The position numbers were made by a program, and so were the translations under genes. From NCBI GenBank assembly GCA_003971905.1, contig RSEE01000033.1, positions 434,001 to 498,000 on the forward strand: a stretch of 64,000 nucleotides of DNA. The letters run 5' to 3'. Below, in pieces: positions 1,296 through 62,630 of this stretch. Source of the stretch: Moniliella sp. 'wahieum' (lineage: Eukaryota). The notes beneath the pieces are model-generated. The model was not told the origin of the DNA, searched no databases, and saw only the letters and a program-made list of their open reading frames with translations. Every line of letters begins with the position of its first letter. Positions within the stretch are counted from its first letter, which is position 1.

Positions 1296-1319
1296 GTGAC
1301 CACCACCCCGGCACCGCCC

Positions 1320-4736: not shown

Positions 4737-5333
4737 TCTTGGTGGCGCTTCCAAGTAACCCCCGCAAGATGAACGGTTCGGTTTAGACGTAGCGTTCCCC
4801 CTGTCCCAGCCTTAAGCTCTGTCAATGGAATGCACACAACATTAGGTGTCCGTGCTGTCATTTTTCCAACAAATGTGTTTACTAACGCAGTCTTATTGGC
4901 GGGTAGAATGACTTCTGGGGTAGGTTTGCCTAGAAGGCGTAGTTTCAAGTTTCACAGCATCTGATATTGATGCATGATGCATGATGCCTGGTGCCTCCCT
5001 TTACATTTCACCGGCGGGTTGATTTGTTGATAGGACGACACTGGCGCCCTGCTTTGAAGGACCCTTGTGGCTCTACGTAACTAATTAGTAATTCGACCTT
5101 GGATGCGGCACAGGAGCAGTGGGCGGGGAGGAGGTCCTCGTCACCGACGTCATCGGCCCTCCCCTTGGCGGCGATACAGCACTGCGGACCACACCCGCCG
5201 CCTGTGATCGAATCGACGTAATCTTCTTGCTCGACGATTGAATCTTGTTTGCCTGGCGCCCTTGGGTTTAAAACCTCAGCACTACGTCCAGCAGTGCCCT
5301 TCCTCCTCTACCACCACCTCTCTTTTGCCTCTC

Positions 5334-5774
5334 ATGCCTTTCGCTCCCGGTGACGCCAAGAAAGGCGCTGGCCTGTTCAAGACGCGCTGCGCTCAATGCC
5401 ACACCCTTGAGGCGGGTGGGTCCCACAAGGTCGGACCCAACCTGCACGGTGTGTTCGGCCGCCACTCGGGCCATGCTGAGGGCTATGCCTACACTGAGGC
5501 CAACAAAAAGGCTGATGTGCTCTGGGACGAAAACACCATGTTTGACTACCTTCTCAACCCCAAAAAGTACATTCCTGGAACCAGTATGTTTTACACTCTC
5601 ATATCTATCCGTTCCGTCTCACAGACAACCCCCCAAGGCGCTCTGGCGTCCTGTTATCTCTCGCTTAGATTAAACTGACCCGCCTTCTACGTATCAGAGA
5701 TGGCCTTTGCCGGTCTCAAGAAGGAGAAGGACCGCAGCGACCTGATCACCTACCTCAAGGAGGCGACGGCGTAA
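5334..5774 (+). CDS. CYC1: Cytochrome c
   Basis: [19 protein letters not shown] (CxxCH) ... [29 protein letters not shown]. Intron 5584-5697 (GTATGT...CTGAC...CAG). Confidence 0.98.
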
Positions 5775-6213
5775 GTTGGTGCAACAGATTGCCCTGTTGT
5801 TACAGCAGGGCATGGCATCTATACTTAGTTCCCATCAGTTCGTGGCGCACGTCTATACATCCCTTCACCACTCTTTTTCCCCGTTAATGCTCTGTGCACT
5901 TCGGGGCCGTAGATTGCCTGTTAGACAGACCTCATATCTCAATCAAGTTGTGCTAGGCCACGAACCTTGATCGTAGAGGCGATCCTTTATACCCGGTTAC
6001 ACTACGGCTTACCACTCCTAGTTGGACGTTTTGCTACCATGGCCGGATACTATGAGTTTGCGCGCGGGGGCAATGCCAACTTGCGCGCCGTTGTGACCTT
6101 ATGATAAAGGCAGATATCATGGCCGATTCCTTCATCTTCGTTTGGCCATACGGGGACTGTTCATGGACCAGTGGTGTTCATGCCGTGATCTCATGTTGGA
6201 GGGAGAGAAAGCG

Positions 6214-6859
6214 TTAAGCAGTAGAGGGAGGAACACGATCCACTTTCAAGTCACGAATCTTGCCGGTAGGAAGATCGTAAATCCAACCATGGACGGTGAC
6301 TTTAGGGGTAACCTTGCCTGTAATAGGCGAGGCGGCCCCATTCCAGTTGGCCTGGACGACTGGTGAGGCCACAACATTCTCCACCTGATCAGCGACGGAA
6401 GCCTCGGTAACCAATTGAGCCCAGGTATGCTCGTCCACATCAGGGTGCTCTTTGCGGATCTTGTTTGCCAAAGCGGAGAGAGGGCCGAGGTAACGAGCTA
6501 GTGGTGTTTGCTGTTCGGCCGTCTCGGATTTGGGTTGGGAAGCGGCGACACAAGCTGCGTGCACACACACCACAGGAGGTATGGCCCACAATAACAATGT
6601 GCTCCACGGCAAGGCCTTGGATAGCGTACGTCAAGGCCGCCAATGTCGTGTCGTCGACAGGCGAAACTTGAGCCGCAATGTTGCGCACGACAAAGCAGTC
6701 GCCAGGCTGAGACCCTGTCACGCTTCCTTCGGGCACACGCGAGTCCGAGCACCCGATCCAAAAGACCTTGGGCGCTTGACCCTTGCTAAGTGTAGCCAAC
6801 AGCTCGGGAGGGGCGGTGGTGGCCCAGGTAGCGTTGCCTTGGAGGAGAGTAGCGGCCAT
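6214..6859 (-). CDS. NCE103: Beta-class carbonic anhydrase (one frameshift near 6570)
   Basis: GQAPKVFWIGCSDSRVPE, FVVRNIA, HIVIVGHTSCG, and VHGWIYDLPTGKIRDL in the adjacent frame. Confidence 0.93.
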
Positions 6860-7343
6860 AATGATGCGGGTTCAGGGTTCAACAGGTGTCAGGAGAAGTG
6901 GTGGTGAGGTGGAGGTGGGCGAAGGAGAAGGGAAGTCGAAAAGGAGAGAGCGTCGGAGACCGTTTCGTCTACCACTTTAAGATCCTGGGCGCAGCCCTCA
7001 GAAGCTCAGGGGGGTTTGCGCGTTACATTATCAATCCAGTCAATTAGGGAGGCATCCGGTTACTGGGACCGACCGGTAATGGAGGGACGTGGCGATGGAT
7101 CTCGATCAGTACCAGGACAATATGTACTCTTCAGTACATACACACTCACAGGACTACACATCAATAATCGATCATCGGTCGTCGAAGTGGGGCACAGAGG
7201 CCCGAGGCCTGAGGATGTATCGGCACACGGACACTAGCCTGCTGCCTTAAGTGGATTCCCAGCCACATAGGGGGATATATAAGTGGTGGTATGTATGTTG
7301 CAGGGAAAGCCATATCGCACGGCATCTCGATATGCGGCATCCT

Positions 7344-7623
7344 TCATCGACTCATCGATCATCGATCATCAAGCTTCAAGCTTCACAAGCTTCAAGCTTC
7401 AAAAGCCTCAGACCCTCACAGGCCTGAGCCTCAGGAGCTTCAGGCTGACATGTGACACATGTGGCCTCAGCCTGAGAGTCTCGGGTCGGCCACGCAGGCT
7501 TGAGCCTTGAAGCTTGAAGCTTGAGCGCCATGCATCATGCACATGCGCCTCCTCGAGAGTTGCTAATTATAACGGCAAACTGGATTAATCGAATTAATCA
7601 TCAATCATTAATCATCAATCATT
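7344..7623. repeat. Mosaic of 7-bp-period palindromic arrays (TCGA, AGCT, CATG, TTAA cores between TNA triplets)
   Basis: TCA-TCGA-TCA-TCGA-TCA at 7352, TCA-AGCT-TCA-AGCT-TCA at 7369, TGA-CATG-TGA at 7446, TGA-AGCT-TGA-AGCT-TGA near 7508, TCA-TTAA-TCA at 7605. Confidence 0.85.
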
Positions 7624-9479
7624 GGGATTCCCAGTGGAGCCTGTGGAGCCCCACGTGCGCTTTTTCAGATATGGGAAAGTGCCTGTGGCCGGAGCTCTGG
7701 CGGAGATTCACTTCTAGGCTCAATATGTTGTGGACAGGAACAGAGCCTGACTGAGGCTTCAGTACCTCAGTTGAGGCCTGACTAGTAGCCTGACTAAGCG
7801 CACACAGCAAATCTTGTGTGCAAAGAGCCCGCAGCCGACGGGCTGCTGAGCGCGCTGAGCTGTACCGCCATGAAAAAAGGGGCGTATGTGTGTACGTTGT
7901 ACGGTTATGATCGAGATCGCATGCACAGGCACCGGACAGATTAGTCGAATGGCTGCGCCAGTGCTGCTCCCCCTGGGGCCATCTGGGTTTCAGGGGTAGC
8001 GGGCTACGCAAGTAGAGAGAGGCACCTTGGACGCGCGCGAGACGCGTGAAGCTTGTGAAGCTTGAAGCTTGAAGTACGAGGCTGAGGCGTAAGATCTAAG
8101 ATCTAAAGCGCTCAATAGGAGACCCCTTTTCCACCACACGTTGTACGCCACATCAGTGCATCAGATCTCAAACAGCGCTCGCCGGCACCGGCCTCATATG
8201 TCTTGCCGCCGGCCTCGGAATTCGCTCGCTCGCACAGCCGGTTTTCGGAGCGGTATATGCTCGCGTGACGCGACCCGCGTTAACAACGTTAACGTATGGC
8301 AATGAATTATGAGAAGGAGAATACAGTAAGGGGCCCCGCGGACGCGAAGACCATCCGGTCGATGGACGTTCGTTGAACCCATACCTAGTACTCACGTGCT
8401 CAGCATTAGCCAATTCGTGGAGTATGGACTTTGGCGCGTCTTGAAGGTGAATGAGATCGCCTGAAAAGAGCATTTGAAGTTCAAAAGATAGGCAGTTGTG
8501 GTAGCATGGAACGGCACCGGATGCCGGTGAATCGCTCGGGGGTTCCTGGGACGCGGCTCAGCTGAGTTGAGCGCTCCGGCTGAGCGCTGTGTTAGCATAT
8601 ATGCGGCTCCGAGAATGGCTTTGCTGGTAGGCAATGGTGTGTGCCACAGGAGTATGGCATCCACATGATGCATGATGCATGATGCATGGCGCACACGCCA
8701 CACCGGCGCAATGTGCACATGCCACATGTCACTTGGCCAACGATCATCGCAATCACACGACCGATAGCCATTATATAGTCACCGATCAGATCGATTATCC
8801 CCAATCTTACCGCCGTTTTCCACGTACACGCACCCGCCACATCATCATGATGAGAATGCGATCGTGAATCATGCATCACGCATCACACATTGCACCTGGC
8901 GCTGTTCTATCCGACTCTGCCCTTTTATGTTCTGCCCCTCCCGGGCTCCTCCACTGCAATCGATCCATCCCCTTCTCTCGTTCTCTTGCTGGTTCTCATT
9001 CTCATTCTCTTTCTCTCTGTAGACCTTGTCCTCTTTCACAGTCTGTTGAGCCACTGGGTGGCTCGTGCTTTCGTCAACGTCCCTTCAGTTCCTCCTCAAA
9101 AGCCTAAGAATTCCGTTGTCTCCTCTCTCTCATGTTTTGCCTTGTTCCGTAGCTTAACCCCTGGTGGCGACTGGCGGCTTGATGTTCCTCTGCAGGCGTG
9201 GCTGATTAATGATTGGCTTAGACCGATACCACCCCCAGTGCGATTGTATCACCCTCGAGGAACATCCGAACTCCAGGTCCTATAATATCTACGGTAGTTC
9301 TTTGGCCAGGTCTGCGTTTTCAGGGTGCGCCGAACCAAAGACGGAAAGGCCCGAGTGAGAGGCGTCGGAAAGCACAGCTGTGGAAGGGGCGGAGGCGAGT
9401 TGTTTGGGGTCCTTGGGGCGACCGATGCTCCACCGTTCCACGATCCACCCACAGCGTAGGTTATGGCATCGGAGGCGTC

Positions 9480-11060
9480 ACGCGTCACGCGTCACGCCTT
9501 TTCGACTTCATCAATGCAGTCTTCGCTTCCCTTGTGCACACAAGTCTTGCAAAGTGTCGCCATCTTCATTCAGATCCCCCGAACGCTCCAGAGGCACCAT
9601 CACTTGGCGATGGTCCGTATACGCCTCGCATTCCCCAAACTCCGCGTCTCGTTCTCTTCCTCCATCGTTGTGATTTGGGTGTGTTCGGGGGACTGATGTG
9701 GAACGCAAAATCAGATCAGCTGCACACAACCTCGTGCAATGCACCAAACTTATTGGACTGGGTGCGTGCGCAAGCCAAGATATGTGTTCAGGCGGAGGAC
9801 ATCAGACCCACACGTGCACTTGAGTGACGAACAGCACAGGGTATGGAGCTAGAGACCAATCTGAACCTGCTTATCGCGGTGAGCTCGAGGCACTCTTGGC
9901 TGCTGGTATTGAGGAAAGCCAAGCGTAGATGAACGCATTGCTGTGTTCGATTACATTGTGACTATTGCATCCATGGAGAGCTTCTGGAGTAGCTGCTTCC
10001 GACTCTTCTCCCACATCTTCTGATAGCGCTTCAATGCGCTGCGCCGTAAATGTGTTCGTTGTGTATGCGTCCATGATGGGGGGGGGGGGGGGGGGCGACA
10101 AAAGCGATAATAAGACCGTCGTTGACTTGACCTCGTCGGCCGCAGCACGCGCGGGGGGCGCATTGAACGAATGTTGCGGGAAACCGCATTCTTTCATCCG
10201 AATAAGGGGTACGCTCATGCGCTCATGAGCATGTCAAGTGATTGTCCTTCCTACCTTCGCGGTTTCGTCCCCTCAGAGCAGGCGTTGAAACTCCGTTCAG
10301 ATTTTATAAATGCGTCGATCTCGTCGCCCTCCATCTACATGATACGCAGCAAGTGGCGCAGTTTGGTCCGAGTACAGTACCACCACACAGGAACTGAAGA
10401 GAGTCGCCCCTTAAGGGTGATGCCATGAAAGTGAGGCATGTCCTGCTTCAGGCTACCCAGCCACGATCGGCGGCAATCCTCACCTCCCACGCAAGTGTTG
10501 CCCACAGGACCACAAGGACCCGTCCTTCCGAATCCGGTCCCGATCCCGTTCGCCACACTTTGGTGTGCAGCCTGACGTGTCTTCTTCCAAAATCTCCGCT
10601 GCACGGGCGGTAATGCCCGTCTCTTGTCCGAAAATGGTAATGTCCTCCAGGTACGCCGTCTGCCCCGGCTCAAGCTTGGCCTTCAGCTTCTCCAACGTTG
10701 GCCGTACTGCCATGGAGAAAATGAACGGGGATGGTCAGTCGGACACACTCTGACAACAGGACGCCCTTTTCATTCCCGTCCGACGCAACCTAAAGCGTGG
10801 GGGTACAAGAGATCCACCGGCATAAAGAAAGGAAATGAAGAGCACAACAGTACTGGGGCAAGTTGGCTAGTGTGTGACGGCGCACAGTCATGAAAGTGTC
10901 GGTGAAATCGAGGATGGCGACGTGGCTGAATTGGCCCATCGCTCTGGGTCCTCCTCCCCAGTTGCCACTGTAATGCGATCGACCATCCGCACGATGGACT
11001 CCACTCCATTACGCGATGCTATCTTCAGCTGAGTGAGGAGAGGAGCCTTATGGGCGGGGA
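9480..11060 (-). mobile_element. Old, heavily decayed copy of the CRE-like retrotransposon (RT to RLE remnant)
   Basis: Minus-strand peptides match the intact copy: AYLEDITIFG..GITARAAEILEEDTSG, TCVGGEDCRRSWL, TKLRHLLRIM, ARAAADEV, VIEHSN..WLSSIP, TDHRQVM. Many stops and indels; ends approximate. Confidence 0.85.
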
Positions 11061-13453
11061 CGGTGAGTGGTGTTGGGGGTTAGATCCCTCACCCCTTTTT
11101 GCAACGTATTGAATGTCGATCACATTTCATCCGCTTCGTTGTTATTACCCGTTCACCATGTGCCACGACTCTGCTCCTCCACCCCTCCACAACAGGGGGA
11201 AAAAGGAGGGCAAGGAGGCCGTGTACAGCTACATGGTCGGGGGGGGGGGAAGGGGATGTTTGGCCCAAATCCGGACGCCACGGATGTGGAGCCACGGCCT
11301 TCATTACCTCTCACCCACAGGCTGGCCGGAGGCCATCCCGTCTACAGCGACTGCATTTCGGCGCGGGGCCAACGGCTTGTTCAATTGTTCAAGCAAGAGC
11401 ACCGCAAGCCGCTAGAGCTGGAGGGACCATTGAATATATCACGTGTATCCCTCCGTGCAGTGGGAGGTAAGCTGAGCCTGTGGCTCTTCTACTCTGTAGT
11501 GCTTTCTTTTGTGGTTGTAGGTGTGTATACCAGAGTAGTATCAAGTGAAAAAGATGGGACATTGGAGGATGCAGTACGGCTGGTGGCCCACAGTCTCTTT
11601 TCGAATGGAAAAGCAGGACCGTTTCCCGCGTGCACCACATGCCTTTCTCCTCGATGCGCTTTTTTGTTTCTCCACTGGATGTGATGGGGATCGAGGTGGT
11701 ACAGGACTGGGGGACAACCTCTTGCCGCGTGGTCGTCTTCCCATTGATCAGATGGCGTTGGTGTTGCTCAAGGTGACTGTCAAGGATGCATTACACTCTT
11801 TCGACTGCTTGGACAGTATATATATGCCATGGGAACACCGTGTTTTGATGTGGATGCTAAGATTACCAAAAGGCCATAACCTCCGCCCCCCTTGACAGCC
11901 TTGTATGGGGGTTTCCCGTGGCCATTTCTACCCCGATTCATCTCCACTGTCTTCCCATGTGTTACGTACTCCCACACCCCGCCCCCTCTCATACTTAATT
12001 TTGGGTACACTCTTTAGTGTGGAGCTATTTTCACGAGAGTCGCTAATTGGGAGATGACTATACCTTTTTAAGCTCGGCGATTCGAACCTAGGGCATAGTA
12101 GAAGATACTGCGGAGCCTACACGGGCAGACACAACGACATGTGACATGTGAGGTCGATTAAAGGGCCTTAGTATACGTAGCCGCGGGGATATATGCCGCA
12201 GAGCAGAGGGAGCGTCCCGGTGAATAAGAGTGGTGATGCCTATCAGACGGAGGATGGGGTAATCGGGGCGTTGCTCTACATCTGGACTGTGGGCATACCC
12301 AAGAATCTCAAAGTATACGAAGAGAGCCCGCGGGCGCGCCGATCCCCTTTTTCCAACTATTAAATTCCCACAGACCCCCCCCAGCAAAATGTGGGCCGTC
12401 TCGCAACGGAGCCCGCGCATTTCAACTATCTGCGGGCCAGAAGAGGCGAGAACTAGTCGTCAGGCCGCTAGAGCCTCTATCCTCCTCCGTTTGCTTGCTG
12501 CCAAGAAAGCTTTGACTAACCTGACGCTCGAAGGAAGAAGGGCGTGCGAATAATATATAGCTGCAATGGGTCAGCTGCAGTGCCTCTCTATGATCATGTC
12601 GATCGATTGCGGGCGAGAGATAGGCGTTAGTGGTAGGAAGCAGAACAGGGCTACAGGAGAAGGCGTTAGTCGTTGGCTTACGCCGGTACGCGCGCATCAG
12701 CAGTCCTCGGAGACCGCGGAGCCCTGGGCTAATGAGGCCGTAAGTGCACCGCAATCGGGGAAGCCAGTCACCGTCGCAACACTCCACTGGGCAGATTTTT
12801 CTTCCTCTATTAATAAACCAGCCAGGGATCCCCTATGGATCCCCCATCCTATGACTGTCACTTACGCAACCACATATTGTCGATAACGCTCTATGACGAT
12901 CATCCCGGCCATCTCGTCCCCTTTTGCCGCTCTGGCCTGCGGACCGTCTCCACGAAAAACCATTTTCTCGCCGTTATTGATGTCAAAAACCTGCTTCGGG
13001 TGAGGAACGGATTGAGATCAATATTCAATGAGATCATCCGCGCACCATAGGCTGTTGATGAGAAAAGAGGAGGAGATGGAGGTTGTGGTTCTGAGGAGAG
13101 GTACAGGAGGCTATGAGAAGGGTAGGGCCTTATATAGACGAGGGTACCGCGGAGCTGAGGAAGCTTCCGGGCGGAAAGAGAGGGGTGATGACTATCACGC
13201 AGGATGGCGTGATTGGGGCATCGCCCCAACATAGGCTCCTGAGACTGGTCTTAGAATTACAGATCCTAGTGCCAAAAGGCTGGACATGCATGATTGCATG
13301 ATACGCCTTCTTCGGTTCCTATATTGACTTAGGCCCGTGGGTGCGGCCATCATATCCCGTTTGGAAGAGCAAATAGAGGGGGGAGCCATACAGTTTATCT
13401 CGAAAACAGAGCTGACGCCACAGCGAGTGCTCTCTGTCTCTCAGCATCGGGCT

Positions 13454-13487
13454 TGATGCATGATGCATGATGCATGATGCATGATGC
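13454..13487. repeat. (TGATGCA)n array, nearly five units
   Basis: Direct read. The same unit forms arrays at 4968, 8666 and 61348. Confidence 0.9.
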
Positions 13488-14367
13488 TTATACTAAGGTG
13501 TTGAAGCGTTTAACGTTTATTGAGGCTGAGGTCGTTTTGAGGACGTTGAAGACGATGATCGATGAGGCCTGGGGCCTGAGCTTGAAGTCAACCCTGAGCA
13601 CTGAGGTCTGAGGGGTGGAAGACGCCTACTTGATATAGAAGAGGAGAGAAGTGATGCATGGGCGCGTCCGCACTGAGAGAAGCCGCATATCATATGGGCT
13701 GAGATGAAGTATGAAAGAGGAGGGAGGCACAGTGTAATTTTCAATTGCGGCCCCGCCTGTGTTATAGTCTGGGTAAGACATAGTCAGTAATGGGCCGCCG
13801 CACAGGAACCAACAACGCCTCCTGCAGTGGCTGGTGTATCGACGTGTATCTCTATATTCGCTGCTTCTTCGAAACCAAAGCCCCTGTCATGTATACAAAG
13901 CCATTCAATCATCGATAATCAACATCCTTGATCACGTCGATCACGATCGATCAATACTATGAAGCTGTTCCCTCCGCTTCTCTTGATGATCGAGTTGATC
14001 ACATCGAGATCATCAACGGCCGTATCTCGGGCATATGAAGTCTGTCCAGAGCTGCTTCGCGCTAAACTTCTCGCTCCCAGCAAGCGTTATTATAACCTCT
14101 ATCGCCGGCCCTCCTCCCTCCTTTCCCAACCTTTATCTCCTGTTTTCCTGATTTTTCAACAGCGCCACAGCACTATAGTAGTCCTGCTTTCACGCCGCGG
14201 CGTCCTCACATCTTCACTTACTCTGGCGACGGTCACCCAACTGATCTCCGAGACCACTATTACATTTTCGCCGTGGGGACAAAAGTGAATAAAACCCACA
14301 CTCACTACTATACACACCCCACGCTTTTCTGCCGCACAACTCGGCCTTTCTGGTGGATACGCCAAGT

Positions 14368-25869: not shown

Positions 25870-26310
25870 CCGCCGCGGACGGCGCCACGGCCTCGGGCGG
25901 CGTTGTGTGCTGTTGCGGGCACCCCAATTCTGGCGCGGAGGGCATAGATGCCCTGCGCCAGCGTCGGCACGAGAGGATGCCAGGGGCAAATAACCCTTCA
26001 TCGAGTCGGTCATCGATAATCCGGTAATGCAATGGCATTCGAGAGGGTCACGTGGACAGGCTCATAGTCGGGGAACCGAAGCTACACGCTGCCGGGGTGA
26101 CCGGTGACCGGCCAGGTGACCACTGGCACGCTGCTTTTAAACTAGCAGGCCGGGTAATACGCGTCTGAGGTGGCCCCTGTGAGCCACAGACTCGCCTGTG
26201 CCTTTGTCGGGCGGTCCCCGACGCCACCACCGTCCCCTGCCACCCGCGCCCACCATCCAGCCCTCCTCCGCTCCACCATCTCGGCTCCCGCCCCACTCCG
26301 GCGCCCTCCG

Positions 26311-30505
<4,195 letters not shown>

Positions 30506-37472: not shown

Positions 37473-37502
37473 ATTTCATTGACAGAGCTTAAGGCTGGGA
37501 CA
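37473..37502 (-). mobile_element. 30-bp solo 3' terminus of the CRE-like retrotransposon
   Basis: ATTTCATTGACAGAGCTTAAGGCTGGGACA is identical to 16373-16402. Confidence 0.85.
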
Positions 37503-43177: not shown

Positions 43178-44906
43178 GCCGGTTGAGGGGACGAAGGAGA
43201 AGGAGGGGCGCAGGCCCACAGAGCGCTCAACACCGGCGGAGCAGAGGCACAGACCAGAGAGGAGCGGAGGGATGGGGCAGCGTCCAGCTCAAGTTCTCAG
43301 CCTCACGCCTCACGCCTCCCTCGCCCCCTCTTGGTGGACAGGCCCCCATCTACCATCGCCTCGCCCCATCCACTTCGGCTGTAACATGGATTGCATTGCT
43401 TGGCTTTTGGGCTGTCGAGCTGTCTGTGCACATAGGCACACCCCCAGAAAATGAGGTGGAGCAGCTCAGCACCGCGGTGCTCGCACGCTGCCCCCACACA
43501 CTGCCCCCGGGCCAGTCTCGGTCCTGCTCTATGTCTGGCATGTCACATTCACGTGTCACCGGTCACCTGTCACAACCTCCCTTTCCGAGATCGGAGCACC
43601 AGATCGCAGAGCGATGGTGCGCTGGCCAGGGCGCCGCCTCCAACCCTAGCACCCCCAAAGCGCCCTATACCTCGGAAGCTTGAAGCTTGAATTCCCGTTC
43701 TATGGGATGCCCTTATTGTGCCCTCCAGCAGTCCCCAGCTTCAAGCTTCATCCTTCATCCAACAACAGCAATGGGTGGTCCTACGCACCCGGCGCTGATC
43801 TGTGGATATGCGGTCGATGGCCACGCCCATGCCCGGGAGGCACACCCTATCAAACCTAAGGGGGGGAGGGCGAGAATACACAGTAAACACGCGTGGATCG
43901 GTACGTCGCGCCCGGCCTCCACAACTTCAATGTGTGGGCACAGACGGCGCATTGTGGGAAAAGAGGCGGTGGGAGGCGCAATGCAGCGATCTCGTTTTGT
44001 CGTGTCTCCGGTTCCGGTTCGTTCAATAGTGATTAACGTGGGCGAGGTGTCGTTGGCTAGTCGGCTCTGAGTACTGGGTATCCTCGTTTTGAGTTTCTGT
44101 ACAAGTATCATAGTTCATCGACTCTTTAGCTCCCCAACCTGGAGAGGATAGAACGCTGTGGTTCTCCGTTGGACGAACCGACCCACTGCACACATGTCCA
44201 GTGAAACGAAACGAAATGATGCGGCCGCGGTGCTCGTACAACCCACTTTTCATAGTTCCTCCCTCCTACGTGTCGTCGTCCCGACCGGGACAGAGATGGA
44301 TGGTCGACAACTAATGTCCACAGACTGTGGCCACTCGCTTGTTGCAGCGAGGTCAGGCTCAGGGGAGGGTCGTGGGTATGCAACGCGAGGCGCATTTTGC
44401 CTCTCTATTTCACTCATGTCGCCATTCGTGTCTGCTATTTACTTTGTCCGCTCCTTGGCATCAGTCACCAAGGTACCTAGCTCGTCTACGCAGCACGCGC
44501 CAAGCCGCCTTCCCAACACAGCAAGACCAGGCAGGACACAAGATGGAACGAAAGTGGCAGCTAGCGTGCAGGCAGGCCGGCACAGAAGCACAAACGGAGC
44601 AAAAAAGGAAAGAGGGGATGGGGTGAGGGTGGGGGGGGGGGAAGATATAAGCAGGCGCATATATACCGCCCCCTACTGAGCCAGCAGAGCCAAGAGAGGA
44701 GCAAGTAAGCGCATCGGTCGGTCGGCCGAGACTAGCTTGGCCGCACGCACCGAGATCCAGAGAGGAAAGCACGTCGTCAAGCGTCGCGGGGGGTATGGTA
44801 GTTTGGGTATTAGGGGGGTCGGCCCAGAAGGGAGGGCAAGAGGTAGGGGGTAGGGGCAGGGGGTAGGGGGGGGGGGGATAGAGAGGAAGGAGGCAGGTGC
44901 TACGTC

Positions 44907-48949: not shown

Positions 48950-51599
48950 GGCGGCGCGCAGACAGGGGGGGTGGAGGGGAGTGGAGGGGGGGGAGCGAGA
49001 AGGAGGCGGCGACAGCGTCGGCGGCGCTGGACATGTCCAGTCCAGGGGACGCCCGCCCGCGCTCGGGCGGAGTGCGCTGTGGTGCGGCGGCCAGCCAAGA
49101 GCCACGCCGAGCGGCGCTGCGCTGCGCCTGGGGGCGCTGGACGCCGGGACGAGACAGGCAGCTGCCCACTGGCCACTTGCCGCCACCACTCGCCCCCTGC
49201 CTCGCTGCGCGCCACGCCCCACCAGGCACCCGGCTGCGGCCAGCCGCATCACCCGTCACATGCACACCCCATGCCCACCAGTGCCCGCCCTCATCACCCG
49301 TCCGTGCATCTCAGGCGAGCGGCGCCTCCCGCGGCTGCCCAGTCTGAGCCGCTGCGGGCGCGTGCCAGCACAGGCGCAGTGTCGGGGCCCGTGCCGATCC
49401 GGGCGCAGTGTGGCATTTGGGCTGGTGGATGCGTCTTGCTCGGGGTACGTACCTGCAGGCCCTCCTCTGAGCCGGGCGCTGGATGGCATGTTAATATTAT
49501 GACGTCCAGCCTCCAATCCAAGGGCAGCGTTAACACAATGGACTGTGCCGAGCTGGCATCCAATTTCCAACACCTCGGCCCACCCCCCACCATCTTGTCC
49601 ATCACCTCAACCCCCCATGCCGTCCAACGCCCTTGCCATGCATCCTCCTCTTCCAACCACGCCTCTCTCCGTCCCGTGTCCCTCCTCCCCCGTCTCGTCC
49701 CCTTTCTCTCTCTGCGGTATGCAGCGCTGCACACGGGCTTCTCGGCGAATTGCTTGCATTGTTGGATTACTATTGCTAGTTTACAAATGCCCTAACCTAA
49801 GGCCATCCAGTAACCGGTAGCCGCCCAAGCATCCCACCACAGACACCCCAGCAAGCCTCGCCCTCACTGTTCCGATCAGGAGGGCGGCGCTCTCAGCCGC
49901 AGTGCGCACACAGGCCCACACCATTCCAGTTTCTTGGCCTTTCTTTTGGCCCGAGCGCCCGCCGGCTGCGCAAACACGTGCTACGAGCTGGGCCGAGCTG
50001 GTGCGGCAGGCGTTGCGCTGCATGGGATGCATGCCATCACATGCAGGGTTGCCGGTTGCCCGGTTACGCGCTTGCGACGCCAGTCCGATCTCAGACTAGC
50101 GGCTAGTGATAGTGACTAGTGATGTGACTGGCGGCTGTCACGATACCATGCACGTGACTAGACTAGCACTGGCAAGCTGCAAAAGCGCATCTCAGAGGTG
50201 AGTCTCACCTCTCACCGCAGATCTCCACCCCCGCCCCGGTCCGCACCCACCGGCCACCACCGGCCACCACCGGCCACCACCCATCAACCACACCCGCCCA
50301 CACCTGACCACCCTGCCACGCCCCATGGGCCACCGTCATGTGCATTGTGCATTGTGCACGCCCCCGTGCACCTGCTTGTGTTGCGCAAGGTGTTTCGAGT
50401 CTTCTCACCTCTCACACCTCAGATCTTATCTCGCACCATTCTGTCTCTGCTGCTTGCGTGAGGACGGTGTACTAGCAAGCGTGTCTGCCTAGCCGCCTGT
50501 CGCTGAATCACCACCGTCACCCCCCCCCCGGCCCCCTCACAGTCCCTGGTGCATGGTGGCTGTGACCTTCTTTTCACGCTGGACGGTGTGGTTGACCTAA
50601 AAATTACCTGTGGCCGCGGGGTGGGCACATTCGTTGACCAGTGACCGTTGAGTGGCATGTGGACCTCCACAGTCCTCGCTGCTGTTTGGTTGAGCAAATA
50701 ATGAACGCTGTAGCAGCAGTGCGGTACAGCTGCACGGGCAACCAGCGGCAGGTGAAGACCAGCGTGGTATGGGTCTGGCCTGGAGGGTGGGAGATGCTAT
50801 GCGATGGAGGGGTCGATGGTCGATGGATGGATATGGGAAGTAGTTGAAGCGATGATGACGTCGATGAGGATTGATCTCTTGCTGGACGTGTAATACACAT
50901 TTACATGTTACATGCTCGATCGGCGAGGACGCGGGACGCAAGTAAAAGGGTAACCGCTTGAGCGTTGAGCCAGTCTACTACTGCCATCCATCATCTACCG
51001 CCGATTATAAAGATTCTCGATGAGCGATCATGATCAATTCCCCGAGGAGAGCACCATTTCTATCGATACATTGCCATTCATCCTTCTGATTCACCTGGCG
51101 CTGGGGATGGTTTTTTTTTTCTCTTCTTCAACCAAACGCAGTAGGCAGCCCCCCTTCTCGTTTTGCCGAGAGCAAAGAGCGAGGACGGGCGCGGTTGCGT
51201 GGGAGAAACAGAAACACGTTTGCTAACTGAAACTCGGAAGGTCATGCAGGTCATGGACGGGGGCGAGAGGCGATCCTGATGGGACATGAGCCGTAGGGCG
51301 CTGTTGGAGGCATTGCGGGGGGGCATTGAAGGTTTAAGTTAAACTCAACGATGAACGGATTCAACGTTGTGGGGCCCAAAGGTAAGACTAACCCGCGTCG
51401 TGTTCTGTCTTTGAGATCCAAGGGAGACGACGAGAGGGGAGATTGTCGCGAGGCAGAGAGAATTGCAGACTACAGGACGCCAAGCACTTGAACTGGCGCC
51501 TGGCGCCCATGAGAAAATAAAGAAAAAAGCAAAAGATGGTATCGCATACAGAGGAGTGAAAAGGCGGAAGCGCGCCGTTGCCGCCGATCTTGACGTGGA

Positions 51600-53838
51600 T
51601 CACTTGGAGCTGTGCAAAGGAATGTGGTGGAACTTGATCTCTTTCGACTGGGGATGGGGGTGGAGGTGGCCCGGCTGAGGTCCATGGGAGCAAGTAGGGA
51701 TCCCCTTGATCCATGCATCCCATCGTCCTCCTCGCCCTCGCTCGTAAGCCGGACGAGCGGGTACACGTTTGCGATGGTGGCAAGGTGGAGGAGCCGACCA
51801 AGCCACAAGGCACCGCGTCCTTGGCCTCACCAGGAAGGTAGGATAAGGGCGACAAGGCATCGGCATACCTCTTGCCCCGTAGCAACTCCCCTAGCGTACA
51901 CCGCTGCGCGGGGTCAATAGCCAACATGCGCCGAAGCGCCGGCCGCACTTCTTCGGGGCACTGGCTGAAGATCGAGTCCCGTGTGGCGGGCGAGGCAGGG
52001 GTGGGCGATGGGAGAGCGAGGGCGGGAGCGGGAGCAGGTGCGGGGGCAGGCACAGGCGCAAGCACCGCTGACGAAGTGTGCATGGGACCTGGGCTAAGAG
52101 AAGTGCAAGGTCGGGCCAGAGCATCCGTGGCCAAGCCGCGCTCAACGTGGGAAGTGGATAGGTGGCGGGCGCGTGTCCATTGCTGCTTGCCATGGTTCTC
52201 ATCGCCCGCATGGGTTCCCGGCGGAACGCCGAGGCGGCAGGGTGGAGGACCGCGCTTGGCTTGTCTCGGCCGGGGTTGCGACCACTGCCTCGACTCTCCT
52301 TTTCCCGCTCGCGTCGTGAGCTTCGTGGGCTTCGTGCTCGCCCGAAAGGAAGGCGGAGCGCTCGGACAGTTGGGGCGAGGTGGCTCGTGTGTCAGCGAGC
52401 GTGGCTTCATCCCCATCCTCTTCACCTGCCTCGTCTTCATCTGGGCCACTGGACTCGCCCCCGGTCATGCGCTCCTCCGATCCAAAGCCAGGCGCCGAGG
52501 CAGATTCCAAAGCACGGTACCCAGCCTCCGAAGCGGTAGGGATCGACCGCTCGCCCAATTCCGTGCCGGACATGCCTGGCCGTGTGGGCGCGAGGGAAGC
52601 ACGCATCAGGCTGGCGGATGAGACACCAGGGAGGTTAATGTAGAGCGTCGGACTGGCCTCAAGCGGTACCACGCTTTCAGCTGCGTCAGGGCAAGCCGGG
52701 GACAGGAGCGAGGTGGAAGCAGGGGGAAGCCAAGATAAGGGAGGGAGGTGGTAGGCCTGTCGTCTGTCTGTGGCCCGATGCTCGGGTCGGTAGCGTGGGC
52801 ATGTTGGTACGGTACGTCGGTGGCAGAGTGAGTCGCCGAAGCGGCACTGGAGGCACATGTTGTTCCGCTCACGCTCAAAATAGGGGGGCCAGCGGAGCTA
52901 ACCATCGCCGCCGAGGCCGGCGAAAGGTCGGCTTGGCGGGTGCCAGCCTCAGCCGGAGAGCTGGTAAGAAGCTCGGGTGTTCCTGCACAAACAGACGGTA
53001 GGACCGGTCGCGGCGCGCGTCGGGCAATTTCCAGGGGAAGCGACGGAGGTACATGCAAAGAAAAATGATAGCCAAGCTCCACACGTCAGTCGCCCTTGGG
53101 TCGTAGGAAGACTGACTCAACACCTCAGGCCAAATAAGGATCAGAGCCCACGACGCCCGTGGCGGGCAAGGTGGTGGTCGAACCTGGGGTGCGGAAGACG
53201 ATGGCAGTGCCAAAGTCAATAATCTTGACCACATTGTCTTGGGTCATGACGCAGTTGTCCAACTTAAGGTCACGGTGGGCGAGGCCCAAATTGTGCAGAT
53301 AGTCGACGCCATCAACAATCTGGCGGAAGATGCAGAACAGATCGGCCGAACTCATCTTGTTGGCCATGACCACCGAGAAGAGGTCGTACGGAGCATACTC
53401 TAGCACTTCGTAGTACTGGCCAGCATGTGTGAAGAGGTCGACAGTCTGGATGATGTTGCGGTGCTGGAGCGTGACGCCAACACAAAACTCGGCGGTGATC
53501 TTCTTGAGATAGTCGCGTTGGTTTTCGTTGGCACGGAGGGGGCGAAACTGTTTGATGGCAAAAACGCGACGGTCGTGGCGCTTGACGAGACGCACAGTGC
53601 CGCCTGCGCCGCTGCCGAGGACGTTGCCCCAGCTTCGGTACTGCTTGTGCAAGTTCTGGGCGCTGACACCAGCGGCGAGGGCAGGCGCCTCTCCGCGCCT
53701 AAACCTGCACGATGGAGGAGGGGGCAAGGACTTTTTGGCGAAGCGGTTGCGGAGACCAGAGAAGAGGCCGTCTGCTTTGGAGTGCCGGCTAGGAGGCGGA
53801 GGCGCAAGCGCAGGTGAATGCGCGGCAGTGGAAGGCAT
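51600..53838 (-). CDS. HAL/NPR-family Ser/Thr kinase (Hrk1/Sat4-like)
   Basis: [80 protein letters not shown]. Confidence 0.92.
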
Positions 53839-56566
53839 GGTGGTGGTGACGGTGGTGTGGTGGTGGTGGTGGTGGTTGGAGGGACAAGATAGATGAGGGG
53901 AGGCGGCGAGGGGGTATAGAGGCTGGATGCGCGTGGGAGCGGGCGAGGGGCTGAAAGCGTGGCCTTGGTACCTCCGAAAATGGCCGCGGCGCACGGGCTC
54001 CCGTGGGTCAGTCGCTGTGACTCGGCACTACCCGGTCATTAATCGTGAATCATGGCATGAATCATGAATGACGCGGGACGCGTGAGGCCGTCCAGTTGTG
54101 TGCCAGCTGCTGCGCTGCTGTCTGAGCGGCCCAGTCAGGCATGCAGCTGCCGCATCACCCATCTTATGCCCGGCACCACCCATCCTGCATCCAATGCACG
54201 CTGCTTGCCACGGCGCACCCTGCCTCGCCGCAGCACCTCGGCCGCCGCGGCGACGTTGGCCGCAGCGCCGGACATCCCAGTGCCTGCGGTGCGCAGGCGC
54301 TGGGCGCATGCACCCCCCGCAGCCCACAGCGCCACGCGCCACGCGTCACCCACCAGCCACACGCACGCAGCTCAGCCAGTGCCTGCCAGTGCCTCGGCGC
54401 TTATCGAGTGCTGCCATGCATCGTGATTAATTTCGGCTGCGAAAGATGCCAGCAGGGTTGGCCTGGGCTGCCAGGGGCTACCAGCAGTGCCAGCAGGTGC
54501 CAGCCCGCTGAACCCCGCGGCATCGGCGTGCGGCACTGGGTTGCACTGGGTGCAGTGGATGCTCGGTGCTCGGCCACCGGCCACCGACCAGCATCTTCCG
54601 CGGACACAGGCGGTTGCTACGGCGTTAAATCCTGTTACAACCTTATTTCGGCCCGACGGTCAGGGCACTGGGTCACTCTGGCCTCTGGAATTCAAGAGCC
54701 GCTGACTGGAAGCGTACCTAGTTGGTTCTCGCTCTGCCGCCTGAAGCTTGGTCAGCGGCTCAGCCTGAGCGCTCAGCCTCAGCCGCTCAGCATGTCAGCT
54801 AGTAACTAGCTAGTAACTGGTAGCACCTCGGGATGGTTAAAGTACGCTATCCGATGGCCGAGAATCAGATCTCAGATCCCGATCGAGCACGCAGGCACTC
54901 AGTTGCTCAGATCGACAAACACAGGCCCGCAATAACCTCCACCGTCGTTTCATTTCTGCGACGTCATGATTGCAATCCCATCGCACCCCGCGGAGACGGG
55001 TGTAGGATGTGCAACATCGATGATGCAATCAGCTGCCACCAGTCCATGGCCCATGCCACGTGTCACTCATGTCACTGGCACTGGTCACTGTGCCTCATGC
55101 TAGTCTGCAGCTCAGAGCAAAGTCACGAGCTTGTGCTCATTCATCATTGGCACTTAGTACTTAGTGACGCTTGAAGCTTGAATGAATCGCCCGCCGGGGC
55201 CAACCAACCTTGCGCAGGAGACGAGGAAACGGAGGGGAGGTCGAGAGAAAACTACATCGCTATATTCACTGGGGCCTTCACACATCACAGGCCCGCAAAC
55301 AAGCGCACCGCCGTGCGTGTTCTTTTGATCTTTCCTCTTCGGCACACAACCACACGCGATTCTACGCCTCTCCATGTGTCGCCTTGTAACTACGACCGAC
55401 GGAGGGTTTCCCCCCTGCTTGCTTCACTCGTCATCACGCGTCACGGGGCTAAGCCATGAAGACGCTACAGGACGCTTAGTACCCTATACTAGAGAGATAT
55501 CGGAACGCGATATGTGTGTGGAAACGCAATGACGAAGAGCAGGTGCTCCACATGCTGCTTGGTATTGAAGGCAGGACAAGGAGAAGCTTTTGTGGCCAAC
55601 GCCTAGGACGGCGCCCCTTCCCTTGGTCACGTCAAGCAGGAAGCAAAAAGTAAACAAAGGCGTGTACACGTGTCGCAATAAGGCACTACGAGGGTCACGG
55701 TACGACGGCGGGCTACACAGCTCGAGAGAATGCCGCAGCCTTCTGGGCTTGACTTCACGAAAGGAACGGGGTGAAATCGATAATGCAATGATGCGGAGCA
55801 TTTGTCCTTGTTTGTGGTCGCTCCCATTTCCAATTTCGTCGTCCCGAGCGTCTCGGGGATCCTTCCCTGTTCTTCGGCTTCGCACCATGTCCTCTGCTGC
55901 CCTTGCTTCCTCCCACCAACTATTCCTACACCCATTGGCTTAGTCCGGACTCTGGTCTCCTTCGCCTTAGCCCGGACTGGGACACATTCACCATATATGC
56001 TTTTTGGTCATGACCATAGCGGGCTCGACACCTCCCGCTAACGATCGAAAAAGCAAAAGCTGGAGATGGCCGGCGACGGAATTTCTCCCGAGGCAAGTAC
56101 CTTTTCCGTTCCCACCACTCACCAAGCACCACTCTGTTTCCCTATATCCAGCATGCAGGCACGAATAACCCCCACAGTAGGTCTGTTTTGGGCACCGGGC
56201 ACCGGTCACGACAATCAGACAAGAATAGGATAAAGAGAAAAAACTAAAACCACTGGGAGACTCCTAAAATGCGCCTCTGGACCGTTCCATCCAACTAATC
56301 TTATTCATCTCCCTTCCTGCTGACCTCCCCTTAACTTATGGAGGTAGATCACTTGTAGCAACTGCAAGATGGATTGTAAATGGACAGCAAAACCCAGCAA
56401 GTAACCAGTGAACGAAAAGAGGAAAAGAAAAGGAATGATAAAACGTGTGGACGGTAGGAGGCGTAACAGGATGTTTTTAGTGGGGTTTTAAAGGTAAGGA
56501 AAGGCAAGCTAGCCAACAAAAAAGTACCCACACCTCCTTCTCGGAGTAGGCGAGGGAAAGGCCGAA

Positions 56567-59500: not shown

Positions 59501-59937
59501 AGGAGCCATAGAGAATGTCGCGGCGACGAGTTTGCAGCTGCGATCCCAACTGATCCGGTTCTTGGTGTCGGCAGGGGTCACATCCATGCGCAAGCTAGTC
59601 CCGTTGGGGTCAGGTAGGTGTTGTTGGGCAAGACGGCGGAGCGCCAGGTCGCCGAAAAGTCGTCTTCCCATTCATTGATGCGATACGAGTTGATCCAGGC
59701 TTGCTGACCCGTACCAGCGTAGCCCGCACGGTCGCGTCCGTATCGGTCGGCATACTGCTCTGGTTAAAGACGATGTTGTCGGCGGCACTGGTCTCGTTGA
59801 AGTAGGTGATGAGCGCATCAGTCCACAGCTCGTTGGTGTTGGGTCGAGGTAGCCGCACTCGCACGCAGCACGTGCGCCCCCAACAACAGCCGAGGCACAG
59901 CGGCGACGACAGCCAGAGTCCGAGGAGCGCGGACCAT
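56567..59937 (-). CDS. Fusion: GH16-like domain, TM helix, linker, acyltransferase-3 membrane domain (frameshifted)
   Basis: ACECGY, YRMDWLPKSVSF, HWSNGSP..SQGPP, ARLFFNSS (fungal GH16 fold); TM YSIYGAAISGGIFFFLTL; RVEY(L)DGLRGFAC, GLNVGIF..LSAR, FLFGLMLADL, FGRNAFSLYLMHG (acyltransferase-3). Confidence 0.75.
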
Positions 59938-60814
59938 GAGGCTTCAGAAGCTTGAAGCTTGAAGGTGGGGGTAGGTGGGGTGGGGGATGGGGTGGCGGTT
60001 GTGATGAAGGTGTGCGCGAACAGCGGGTATAATAAGGGTCCACAGTTGATCGTTGAATCGTCCAGGTGGGGCTTGCCTCTATCCCTCTTTTGCTGTGGCT
60101 GGTGAGAAGAGGGGGAGGCAAATGGGCACTGCTACAATGGATGATGGCCAGGCGCAGTGGATGAGTCGATGAGGTCTGTGGTAGTATCATTGTGAACGTA
60201 GGATGGGAGGATCGGTGATGATACTGAATGAATTAATGATCGAATCAATAATGGATGATGGCTTAGATCTTAGACTGAGAGAGGGTGTCGATGATGTCGA
60301 TGATGCCTGGTGGGAGGGGGCTGTTGTGTGCTGGGGGGGGCGACGGTTACGAAGAAGGGCGGAGGCTGATTGAGTTTTGTGGCGCTGGGCCTCGCTGGGC
60401 CCATGGAGGCTGTGTGAATGTGAGCGAGAATGGCAAGTGGGCAGCGGGGGGGTGCGGGGGGATCACCCTGGGTGCGCATGCGAGATGTTGCTGTCGGAAA
60501 GAGCTCGGCTCATTGAAACATAGCACAGCACCACAGCAGCACAGCAGCCAACAGCGTCCCAGACACAGTTTGTCCCGTATGTTGGCTTGCTGGGGGGCGT
60601 TGCTCGATAAGACATGCGCAACACCAGTGTATTGCCGAAGGGCGAGCGCGAATGTTTCAGAGTTTGCGCTCCGAGCAAGTGAAAATTGCGCGGGCTGCGG
60701 GTAACTAGCAACTGGTATCCAGCACCAGGGTAACCTCTAACCGGTAACTGGCACCGGGCGACTCGGGATGCCCTCTGTTCTCTATACCCTCCTCTGGGTT
60801 GGTGCCAGCGCACA

Positions 60815-62630
60815 GGCTCAGCGCCTGAGGGCCGGTGCCACTCAGGCGCTCAGGCGCGCCCATGGCGCCTCGCGCCTCGCGCATCAGCGCCTCAGCCCCC
60901 AACGCCGCAGCCTCCTCGGCGCCTCAACGCCTCAACGTTGAACTACTCAGGCCTGAGAGGCCTGGACGTGTTGAACATTGCTGAACGTTGAACGGTTCAC
61001 GCCGTTCACGATCTCTTCACTGTAACCAAGAAGTAACCATATGATTGACAGAGCTTAAGGCTGGACAGAAAACGCTGCGCCTAAGCCGACCCGTTCATCT
61101 GACGTGTGTTGCTTGTTCTCGTTTGAACATTAACGTTAACGTTAAACGTTAGTAGTAACCGGAACCCCCCTATATTCTTTTGTGCGAATTGGCCTTGAGA
61201 TACTGAGAGTTGGAGCATCGAGATATCAATGACGCTCGTGAGGATAATCGATCATCGATCGATCATCTGATCATCGACCTCGACCTCTTTCCGATCAAGC
61301 TGATCGGCAAGCTACATAAAAGCGAGGGTCTGATTCAAATCGGCGCATGATGCATGATGCATGATGTATCGCGCCCGCATCACACAGTGTGTGTCTTCGG
61401 CGTGGAAACGAAAACCGTTCTCTCAATTTCAGTTTTGGCCGGGTCACAGCCGGGACCAAACTTTTCCCTAAGAGGCGTTGAACGTAGGCCTGACCTCAGG
61501 TGGGCTTCAAGCTTCACGCGTCACGTCTACTTGTCTGCTGTGTTGGCGAGAGGGGGTTGCACAAATGGGCGCTGCTGCAATCGGATGATCGATTGATGAT
61601 CGATGATGCATGATGGTCAGCCGGTCACCCGGTCACCGGTCAGATGCAGTGAGATGCGGACAAAAAAACTGTGACATGTGACATGTGTGTGACCTGTGAT
61701 TTAGTGGCTAATGCTAGTGATGCATGATGCAAGTGATGGTGGATCGTGTATGTAAATGTGGCAAGAAGAATGGGAGTCGATGATGCATGATGACTCGAGG
61801 ACAATGGGGAGGGGGCAACGCGGTGTGCTCTGACGTGCTAGGCGGGGGGGCAGATACGAAGAAGGGGACAGGACGTTTTGGTGTGTGGCGCTGGGTCCAG
61901 CGGAGTTGCGTGACGCGTGAGTACGTGAGTACTGAGACTGAGTGCGAACACTATGTGAACAAGGATGGCCAGTATTCAATGAGATCGATGATCGATGGTC
62001 GTCGATCGAAGAAGATGTTCAGCGGAAGTGGTCCCGGGGAAAGAGGAGAGCAAGGGGGCTGTGATGGATGATTGCGTGATGGTTATCACCGTAGCGTATG
62101 CGAGGTGCTGTTGTCCCGACGTCCGACAGATCTCGGCTCGTTCAAGAGCAGCGGAGGGCAGCACAGCACCCAGTGGCTTTTCCCAGACAAACTTTGTCCC
62201 GCGGGTGTTCGCTGGGACGATAAGGCGTTGGCTTACGGAGGGCGATATCGATAATCGATCGATAATCGATAAAAAAAGCGCTAGCATTTAAAACTCCATC
62301 CTGCAATTACCTAGATCCTCCTCTGGCTGCAAGAGGCTGTAGTATCGTCGTCGAGGTTCGATGTCAATGCAGGCTGCGTTATTAAGAGAAAAACTAATCC
62401 GGGTAAACAAAAGGGGGTGTGCGCCGCCTATATTGATGTGGCCGGAATCCTGATGCCAAAACGAAACGCTCGGCATCGTTAAACGTTAATCGTTAATCGA
62501 GTTAATCGAGCTTCAAGCTTCAAGCTTCAACTATCCAAGCTTCAAGCTTCAAGCTTCAAGCTTCAACCTTCAAACTATCCAAGCTTCAACCTTCAACCTT
62601 CAACCTTCAAACTATCCAAGCTCAGCTCGG
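60815..62630. repeat. Dense field of TNA-palindrome-TNA arrays
   Basis: TCA-ACGT-TGA at 60932, TCA-GGCC-TGA at 60947, (TGATGCA)n at 61348, TCA-CCGG-TCA near 61633, (TGACATG)n near 61673, TGA-GTAC-TGA near 61926, (AAGCTTC)n at ~62507-62590. Confidence 0.85.
61044..61115 (-). mobile_element. Diverged ~70-bp solo 3' UTR fragment of the CRE-like retrotransposon
   Basis: ATTGACAGAGCTTAAGGCTGGACAG..AACGCTGCGCCTAAGCCGACCCGTTCATCT aligns with the reverse complement of ~4755-4826. Confidence 0.85.

Follow-up and report, generated by a model that had tools for sequence, protein, structure and literature searches.

Gene-upstream arrays of TNA triplets alternating with arbitrary four-base palindromes in a 64-kb window of eukaryotic nuclear DNA

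Known promoter tandem repeats of fungi such as yeast are mostly AT-rich and are not known to follow a symmetry rule, and promoter tandem repeats avoid coding sequence when the length of their unit is not a multiple of three. Promoters are also preferred by many DNA transposons and by meiotic breaks. The footprint of Tc1/mariner elements consists of TA, terminal bases and TA, and it is palindromic since the terminal bases come from inverted termini. Duplication of TNA is the hallmark of the IS5/PIF-Harbinger superfamily, whose typical GG..CC termini would give a GGCC core. For mutation templated by hairpins or quasi-palindromes we know of neither a 7-bp ruler nor a requirement for flanking T and A. 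The excerpted text of one study (PMC4168063) describes Galileo, of the P superfamily, as duplicating a 7-bp target at GTANTAC, an odd palindrome, and as having inverted termini built of tandem repeats, and it describes transposon target motifs as generally palindromic. G-rich heptamer repeats are reported from the bacteria Xanthomonas and Nostoc in the excerpted text of another (PMC4692102). Here we analyse 64,000 nucleotides of contig RSEE01000033.1 (positions 434,001 to 498,000; hereafter the window), which carry short arrays with a period of 7 bp in which a TNA triplet alternates with a 4-bp palindrome of nearly any sequence. We class them as heptanucleotide tandem duplications or microsatellites confined to gene-upstream DNA, which is assumed to be nucleosome-poor.

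Palindromic cores between two TNA triplets are far more frequent than expected, while non-palindromic cores are not. The ten-mer TNA-[4-bp palindrome]-TNA has 83 matches in the window; 200 dinucleotide-preserving shuffles give 6.98 +/- 2.7 (maximum 15). When such triplets surround a non-palindromic core, the count stays at background, with 124 matches against 115.5 +/- 10.7 in 200 such shuffles. The signal is therefore very clean, about ten-fold above the shuffles with a flat control. After overlaps are merged there are 65 independent loci, compared with 7.5 +/- 2.6 in 100 shuffles (maximum 15). An initial annotation of the window had made its reading depend on an excess of palindromic over non-palindromic cores and had placed the arrays far beyond chance, and these counts bear out both points; all 17 of the ten-mers that it quoted were found where it had placed them. 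Its statement that many cores occur is correct, although its count of 13 out of 16 was too low. Fifteen of the 16 possible 4-bp palindromes are present, TATA being the missing one, and the effective number of core types is 9.4. Symmetry is thus kept while core sequence is not, as had been suggested, and this diversity excludes a single transcription-factor motif. The only constant positions across cores are T and A at fixed places, and no single conserved recognition sequence is present. Full-text literature searches found no description of the TNA-palindrome-TNA 7-bp rule, in agreement with the earlier remark that no described process has this signature, and we know of no mutational or protein-binding process that explains it.

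The 7-bp unit can be restated as a hexamer palindrome of the form A-N4-T plus one free base. Hexamer palindromes with outer A..T lie exactly 7 bp apart 33 times, where 0.3 are expected, and the other outer pairs show nothing comparable (C..G 1 against 1.8 expected, G..C 1 against 1.4, T..A 0 against 0.4). The two TNA copies of the ten-mer have the same middle base in 68 cases, a complementary one in 8 and another one in 7, the expected numbers being 2.2, 2.2 and 3.3. The middle base is also the same in 28 of the 41 single-unit loci. Which base it is remains free: C, G, T and A occur 22, 20, 6 and 5 times, in line with the frequencies of TCA, TGA, TTA and TAA in the window. In 5' flanks, TNA pairs with the same middle base have a sharp peak at a distance of 7 bp (94 against 8.9). 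Distances of 8, 9 and 11 bp form shoulders, and those of 3 to 5 bp are not in excess. The cores AGCT, ACGT, TGCA and TCGA, which are of the type WSSW, make up 31 of 55 core occurrences, while they account for 27% of the 4-bp palindromes of the window as a whole. Of the 33 adjacent hexamer pairs, 6 connect two different cores in phase, as in TCA-AGCT-TCA-CGCG-TCA at 61507.

The number of palindromes among these pairs shows that the two halves of the core are not chosen independently. Of 131 TNA pairs with the same middle base at a distance of 7 bp, 68 enclose a palindrome, where 36 would be expected by chance. Independent half-sites with 9.4 effective core types predict about 11% palindromic cores, and a dimeric protein or transposase that reads its half-sites independently is excluded by this comparison. 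Since any core is allowed, base-pairing and not a protein would have to read the palindrome; more generally, the palindrome must be read or made by base-pairing, either through self-pairing of the DNA or through derivation from inverted termini. The single components of the motif are not favoured. Odd palindromes NN-TSA-N'N' outside the ten-mers are not enriched in the window (123 against 129), so that nothing selects for the motif as such, and isolated odd palindromes are rejected as selected seeds. TCA and TGA triplets are likewise not enriched across the window (1849 against 1998), which rules out their general abundance as the cause. Single A..T hexamers number 269 against 166 expected, with 83 of the observed and about 7 of the expected lying inside ten-mers. 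The excess outside ten-mers is small (about 186 against 159).

Perfect tandem runs show that the special status of the 7-bp period belongs to this grammar. There are 56 perfect period-7 runs of at least two units, and 3.4 are expected. The grammar is obeyed by 29 of these, a single substitution separates 13 from it and 14 are unrelated, although only 2.1% of random 7-mers of the composition of the window would obey it. The non-grammar runs of period 7 are also in excess (27 against about 3.3), and so are perfect runs of other periods, such as period 8 (9 against 0.8) and period 9 (8 against 0.2). The excess at periods 8 to 11 is stronger than that of the non-grammar runs of period 7, so it is the grammar that sets this period apart. 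Grammar runs are also longer, with 16 of 29 reaching at least 17 nt compared with 5 of 27 other period-7 runs. A second peak of run length lies at 13-14 nt (25 runs against 0.2 expected). Among the runs of 12-14 nt, 19 of 31 have a TNA boundary exactly at their start or end, compared with an expectation of 2 in 7. This hints weakly at a role for the junction of triplet and core.

The arrays look like living microsatellites. They are perfect short repeats placed head to tail, as in microsatellites, and their copy number differs between loci, from 1.4 to about 14 units. Many are perfect; the longest perfect array has 34 nt or 4.9 units, and about 14 units are reached when imperfections are allowed. 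The ends of the longer arrays are not tied to one phase. Amplification has also affected variant units, among them TCAACCT, with three to four copies, and 8-mers made of a palindromic core plus one base, of which TCAGGCGC and GGTCACCC are examples. Arrays of the same core often lie in opposite orientation at distances of 60-350 bp. The region 7340-7545 folds as a long imperfect DNA hairpin (z = -5.6), and none of 200 shuffles is as stable. A corresponding fold of 61235-61615 is less clear (z = -2.7).

The arrays are found upstream of genes. On a rough gene map of our own, drawn from Pfam matches and long open reading frames (ORFs), the 5' flanks of ten genes contain 44 loci in 11.2 kb and the 3' flanks contain 1 in 5.2 kb (binomial p = 1e-6), an enrichment in upstream non-coding DNA like that of promoter tandem repeats. 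Codon-bias gene finding was too weak to provide a complete map. In three gaps between tandem minus-strand genes all loci are on the 5'-proximal side, and both convergent 3'/3' gaps of the window are free of grammar loci. None of the 29 grammar runs of at least 14 nt overlaps a Pfam-matched stretch, which agrees, as far as this measure goes, with the initial annotation that multi-unit arrays lie outside intact coding sequence. Orientation makes no difference, as 16 loci have TGA or TAA in the sense strand, 12 have it in the antisense strand and 7 are mixed, and for this reason a role as stop codons in all three frames or as a strand-specific RNA signal is rejected. The 5'-specific, orientation-free placement fits a process that acts on double-stranded promoter DNA.

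The arrays are rather likely to be by-products instead of elements kept by selection. How they would be produced is a more tentative matter, and the account that we prefer, without giving it the greater part of our confidence, is a mutational one in which base-pairing-dependent tandem duplications of 7 bp are followed by growth through slippage. The 7-bp tandem duplication would be born at a short palindrome, and its copy number would then be altered by ordinary replication slippage, a step that would account for arrays of 2 to about 14 units with random end phases and for the amplified variant units. Self-complementary units would win because a looped-out unit or array could pair with itself and stabilise the slipped intermediate. 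The self-paired form may be a 2-bp stem with a TNA triloop, or it may consist of 6-bp stems broken by one N/N mismatch. Occasional strand switches would yield the inverted array pairs. Slippage would not only lengthen the 7-bp arrays but also shorten and erode them. In favour of this account are the share of palindromes among the cores, the microsatellite-like behaviour of the arrays, the greater length of the grammar runs and the tie of the period-7 excess to the grammar, the lack of enriched seeds, the 5'-specific placement in either orientation, the hairpin folds of the clusters and the presence of the grammar in further fungal contigs. A further sequence-specific step may lie behind the strict T..A flank and the fixed 7 bp.

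Several points weigh against this mutational account. The T..A flank is left unexplained by hairpin stability: pairing would be stronger in hexamers with outer C..G or G..C, and these form one pair each at 7 bp compared with 33 for A..T. An odd-palindromic unit with a 3-bp stem is predicted, and it is found in none of the 8 period-9 runs, so that the fixed period is unexplained as well. The in-phase junctions of two cores (6 of 33) could not be made by slippage of one unit. Most loci are short, with 1.4 to 2 units, and at this length the hairpin has almost no stability; the birth of such loci is unexplained unless they are relics of longer arrays. Turnover by steps of 7 bp is something that we infer within the account itself, and the 5' and 3' flanks depend on the rough gene map.

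A sequence-specific enzymatic step is ranked second because hairpin stability leaves the T..A flank, the absence of 9-bp analogues and the birth of short loci unexplained. A more far-reaching and doubtful reading is an undescribed DNA transaction of basidiomycete promoters, in which a structure-specific enzyme or repair route would recognise a TNA-centred symmetric site or mini-hairpin with any stem and write one 7-bp unit per event. If this were true, the arrays would preserve a genomic history of recurrent breaks, either programmed or meiotic, and as a side effect new palindromic and potentially dimer-binding sites would arise before genes. The second-ranked explanation itself, also an unlikely one, is that an enzyme with a fixed stagger cuts symmetric sites centred on TNA and leaves the arrays as scars. 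Each event that is aborted or reversed would add one 7-bp unit, much as in target-site duplication. The enzyme could be a transposase, a tyrosine recombinase or a structure-specific nuclease that recognises shape or a mini-hairpin instead of stem sequence. An enzyme would fit the strict T..A flank and the fixed 7 bp, the centre of symmetry is on a base as in target duplications of odd length, and the loci are promoter-proximal and independent of orientation. Precedent is provided by the 7-bp duplications of Galileo at GTANTAC, as far as the excerpted text goes (PMC4168063). However, 52% palindromes with 9.4 effective core types are impossible for a reader of independent half-sites. Staggered cutting and fill-in had been named as a candidate in the initial annotation, and the parts of this idea that were tested found no support. 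Only 1 of 9 two-unit (14-nt) runs has the phase that a 7-nt stagger centred on N would produce, which, with no element in the window, also speaks against a duplication of the P/Galileo kind. TNATNA, which is expected of a 3-nt stagger and fill-in, is not enriched in 5' flanks (15 against 10.2), and that variant is rejected. No candidate element or enzyme gene was found in the window.

Less probable again is that the arrays are functional promoter elements under selection, serving either as dyad sites for homodimers or as a structural element that excludes nucleosomes or forms cruciforms. Their restriction to 5' flanks (44 loci against 1) would be expected in that case, and tandem, palindromic, orientation-free sites are typical of dimer binding. 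The preference for WSSW cores (31 of 55 against a background of 27%) points the same way, as does the identity of some hexamers with known fungal elements, for instance ACGCGT with the MluI cell-cycle box. A functional role is harder to reconcile with one geometry that extends over 15 different cores and with single hexamers that are in little excess outside arrays (about 186 against 159). Many arrays are perfect and hence young, their copy number varies, and they decay by frameshifted variants. They are also not at every promoter, since the upstream regions of PDK and mS11 have only chance-like singletons. If functional, the arrays would be a new kind of promoter element, one defined by symmetry instead of sequence.

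Very unlikely, finally, is the proposal of the initial annotation that the arrays are transposon excision footprints. An element of the IS5/PIF-Harbinger type would duplicate TNA and leave two bases from each inverted terminus, and repeated visits would build an array. The direct TNA copies with the same middle base (68 against 8 overall, and 28 of the 41 single-unit loci) are what this idea predicts, and it would account for growth in 7-bp increments, for the in-phase joining of different cores (6 of 33), for the 17-nt runs with TNA at both ends and for the position of the loci in promoters. On the other hand, 15 cores with an effective number of 9.4 would require nine or more families with different terminal dinucleotides where a few would be expected, and GGCC is the core at only 3 of the 65 loci. 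The 64 kb contain no inverted-repeat element flanked by TNA: 58 of 3316 inverted 9-mer pairs in the window share a 3-bp flank, about 52 are expected by chance, and only 2 of the 58, with arms of 9-11 nt, have a TNA flank. None of the 242 ORFs of the window has a transposase domain. Besides 10 and 17 nt, run lengths also peak at 13-14 nt, the arrays do not end in one set phase, non-palindromic variants are amplified, and the grammar is also present in a distant agaricomycete contig.

That contig comes from a comparison with metagenomes, which suggests that the grammar extends beyond one lineage in a weaker form. All counts given here rest on the 64-kb window and on some metagenome contigs, the latter scanned with three units of TGATGCA. 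As they were picked for having one array, they provide a lead and not a survey. At least 119 loci were obtained, and (TGATGCA)n is present in at least 119 contigs of widely differing G+C content, including some long arrays (L016, L023, L036). The TGATGCA array is therefore common in many unrelated organisms, far beyond fungi, but the full grammar is not. Among the matches listed, other grammar is scarce: all 69 loci of at least 1.5 kb have 36 grammar loci against 26.4 expected, and in 447 kb of metagenome loci the A-N4-T type is found in 7 of 180 other period-7 runs. Four contigs among the matches listed stand out, with 11 grammar loci in 28 kb against 1.2 expected. All four are fungal by Pfam (fungalysin, a phosphatidylserine decarboxylase pair, DUF6535). 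One of them, L046, has five loci within 860 bp, and its named protein relatives are all Agaricomycetes. The presence of the grammar in four fungal contigs, one of them agaricomycete, favours a cellular process of wide distribution over an element restricted to one lineage. With a smut-lineage genome and an agaricomycete contig both carrying it, the grammar may be widespread in Basidiomycota.

The window is eukaryotic nuclear DNA with a G+C content of 58%, and we treat its organism as an Ustilaginomycotina-like basidiomycete, as suggested by the relatives of one predicted protein. ORFs match cytochrome c, beta-carbonic anhydrase, a mitochondrial ketoacid-dehydrogenase kinase, mitochondrial ribosomal protein S11 and a protein kinase, and a RecQ helicase ORF has the domains DEAD, Helicase_C, RQC and HRDC in that order. 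The best-scoring named relatives of the kinase ORF all belong to the smut lineage, with Tilletiaria anomala first (65% identity across 36% of the query) and Ustilago, Sporisorium, Malassezia, Exobasidium, Tilletia and others after it. Two additional matching proteins have 82% and 77% identity.

The only mobile elements seen in the window are copies of one non-LTR-like retroelement (the long terminal repeat being abbreviated LTR). The family includes one long copy with a weak reverse-transcriptase match, one 5'-truncated copy with 93% identity over about 870 nt, and two short 3' fragments. An exact 21-nt motif, ATTGACAGAGCTTAAGGCTGG, is found near the 3' end of all four copies. Each of the four 3' ends has a grammar locus no more than about 200 bp away, and a shared preference for promoter DNA may be the reason. 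The arrays are not 3' tails of this element, as the similarity of the four copies ends a few bases past the 21-nt motif, at a distance of 40-200 bp from the nearest array. In its 5' part, the long copy has a 28-bp tandem repeat at 1156-1307 (5.4 copies, 94% identity), followed by C-rich low-complexity repeats at 1380-2000. One of the fragments is about 90 bp from a tRNA gene at 37291-37384 (-), the only RNA gene of the window. Rfam scores this gene at 51 bits, and ARAGORN gives no amino acid and a 4-letter reading of the anticodon loop; the gene probably contains an intron.

Some other features of the window were noted. A segment of 28-38 nt is present four times at 42428-42784, with a spacing of 93 or 114 bp, within a long minus-strand ORF, and it probably encodes a protein repeat. 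A run of 18 G is at 10078-10095, and the region from 8.1 to 12 kb has no convincing genes. Hexamers of the (TA)n type are in excess across the window (TATATA 11 against 1.2 expected, ATATAT 13 against 2.2), and GAATTC, TCGCGA, GGGCCC and TCCGGA are depleted two- to three-fold. The positions of the arrays and of the retroelement copies are given in Table 1.

Table 1. Arrays, clusters and retroelement copies in the window (positions counted from its first nucleotide)
Feature	Position	Context or content
(TGATGCA) x2.9	4968..4987	between retroelement copy end and cytochrome c gene (5208-5675 +)
Mosaic cluster A	7165..7623	5' of carbonic anhydrase gene (6217-6871 -); cores TCGA, AGCT, CATG, TGCA, TTAA
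AGCT arrays of cluster A, opposite orientation	7369-7402, 7506-7524	arms of long imperfect hairpin
In-phase two-core junction TGA-GGCC-TGA-CTAG	7772..7790	
ACGCGT-G-AAGCTT junction, (TGAAGCT) x2.7, (TAAGATC) x2.4	8042..8106	
(CATGATG) x3.6	8664..8688	inverted partial copy 8865-8885
(GCGTCAC) x3.3 = ACGCGT + C	9475..9497	
(GACATGT) x2.3	12136..12151	
(TGATGCA) x4.9, then TTA-ACGT-TTA, TGA-TCGA-TGA-GGCC	13454..13565	upstream of membrane-protein-like ORF (14293-14778 +)
(GGTGACC) x2.3	26096..26111	upstream of RecQ helicase gene
Three loci, cores CCGG, AGCT, AGCT	43555..43760	5' of long minus-strand gene (38366-43226)
TGA-CTAG-TGA, TCA-GATC-TTA, (TTACATG) x2	50110..50914	5' of 989-aa minus-strand ORF
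Five loci, cores GCGC, GATC, GTAC, AGCT, CGCG	54766..55445	5' of protein kinase gene (52878-54027 -)
(GAAGCTT) x2.6	59947..59964	
Mosaic cluster B, about 20 loci	60738..62651	cores ACGT, GGCC, TCGA, TGCA, AGCT, CGCG, CCGG, CATG, GTAC
In-phase junctions of different cores in cluster B	61507, 61597	plus 8-bp-period variants
Inverted array pair in cluster B	61244-61271, 61580-61607	
Longest array, (AGCTTCA) about x14	62509..62622	amplified non-palindromic variant TCAACCT; 37/44-bp higher-order repeats
Non-LTR-like retroelement family	1104-4830 (+), 16370-17240 (-), 37478-37498 (-), 61044-61150 (-)	

If the arrays are mutational, they represent a mutation signature without known cause, and some step by which promoter DNA of fungi is replicated, repaired or recombined would be indicated. 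Palindromes of 6 bp are typical sites of dimeric regulators. Whether the arrays are mutational or functional, a process that keeps setting fresh 6-bp palindromes upstream of genes could feed regulatory evolution.

Among known systems, the arrays are close to the unstable tandem repeats and microsatellites of fungal promoters, which also consist of short head-to-tail units upstream of genes with variable copy number. They differ in following one rule, A-N4-T plus one nucleotide with a period of exactly 7, across 15 cores. The footprints of Tc1/mariner (TA) and IS5/PIF-Harbinger (TNA) elements are similar in that a short direct repeat flanks palindromic bases and each event brings a fixed gain, but in the window core diversity is too high, no such element is present, and arrays reach about 14 units. 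Templated mutation at hairpins and quasi-palindromes and the expansion of repeats promoted by hairpins resemble the proposed origin of the arrays, in that base-pairing can make or keep any palindrome and favour slippage of self-complementary repeats. Fold-back template switching, which had been suggested in this connection, would be expected to flip the middle base, and complementary middle bases are the minority (8 against 68); it could still explain the inverted array pairs. As far as the excerpted text describes it, Galileo shares the 7 bp and an odd palindrome centred on a free base (PMC4168063). Its target is one sequence with an A-N-T centre, while the units of the window have a T-N-A centre, arbitrary flanks and no element. 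The heptamers of Xanthomonas and Nostoc are likewise intergenic, with a period of 7 and several units, but in the excerpted text they are bacterial, G-rich and non-palindromic (PMC4692102), and neither the organisms nor, presumably, the causes are related. The palindromic (A)n(T)n repeats of mitochondria are different from the grammar of the window, judging from the excerpted text of PMC7218506, and the excerpted text of PMC13234504 deals with the telomeres of Microstromatales and is not relevant to it. Overall, Galileo, the IS5/PIF-type and Tc1-type elements and hairpin-driven instability each have one or two features of the grammar and none has the whole. Promoter tandem repeats are a known kind of sequence, and the arrays stand apart by their rule, which combines direct TNA copies, an arbitrary 4-bp palindrome and a strict 7-bp period.

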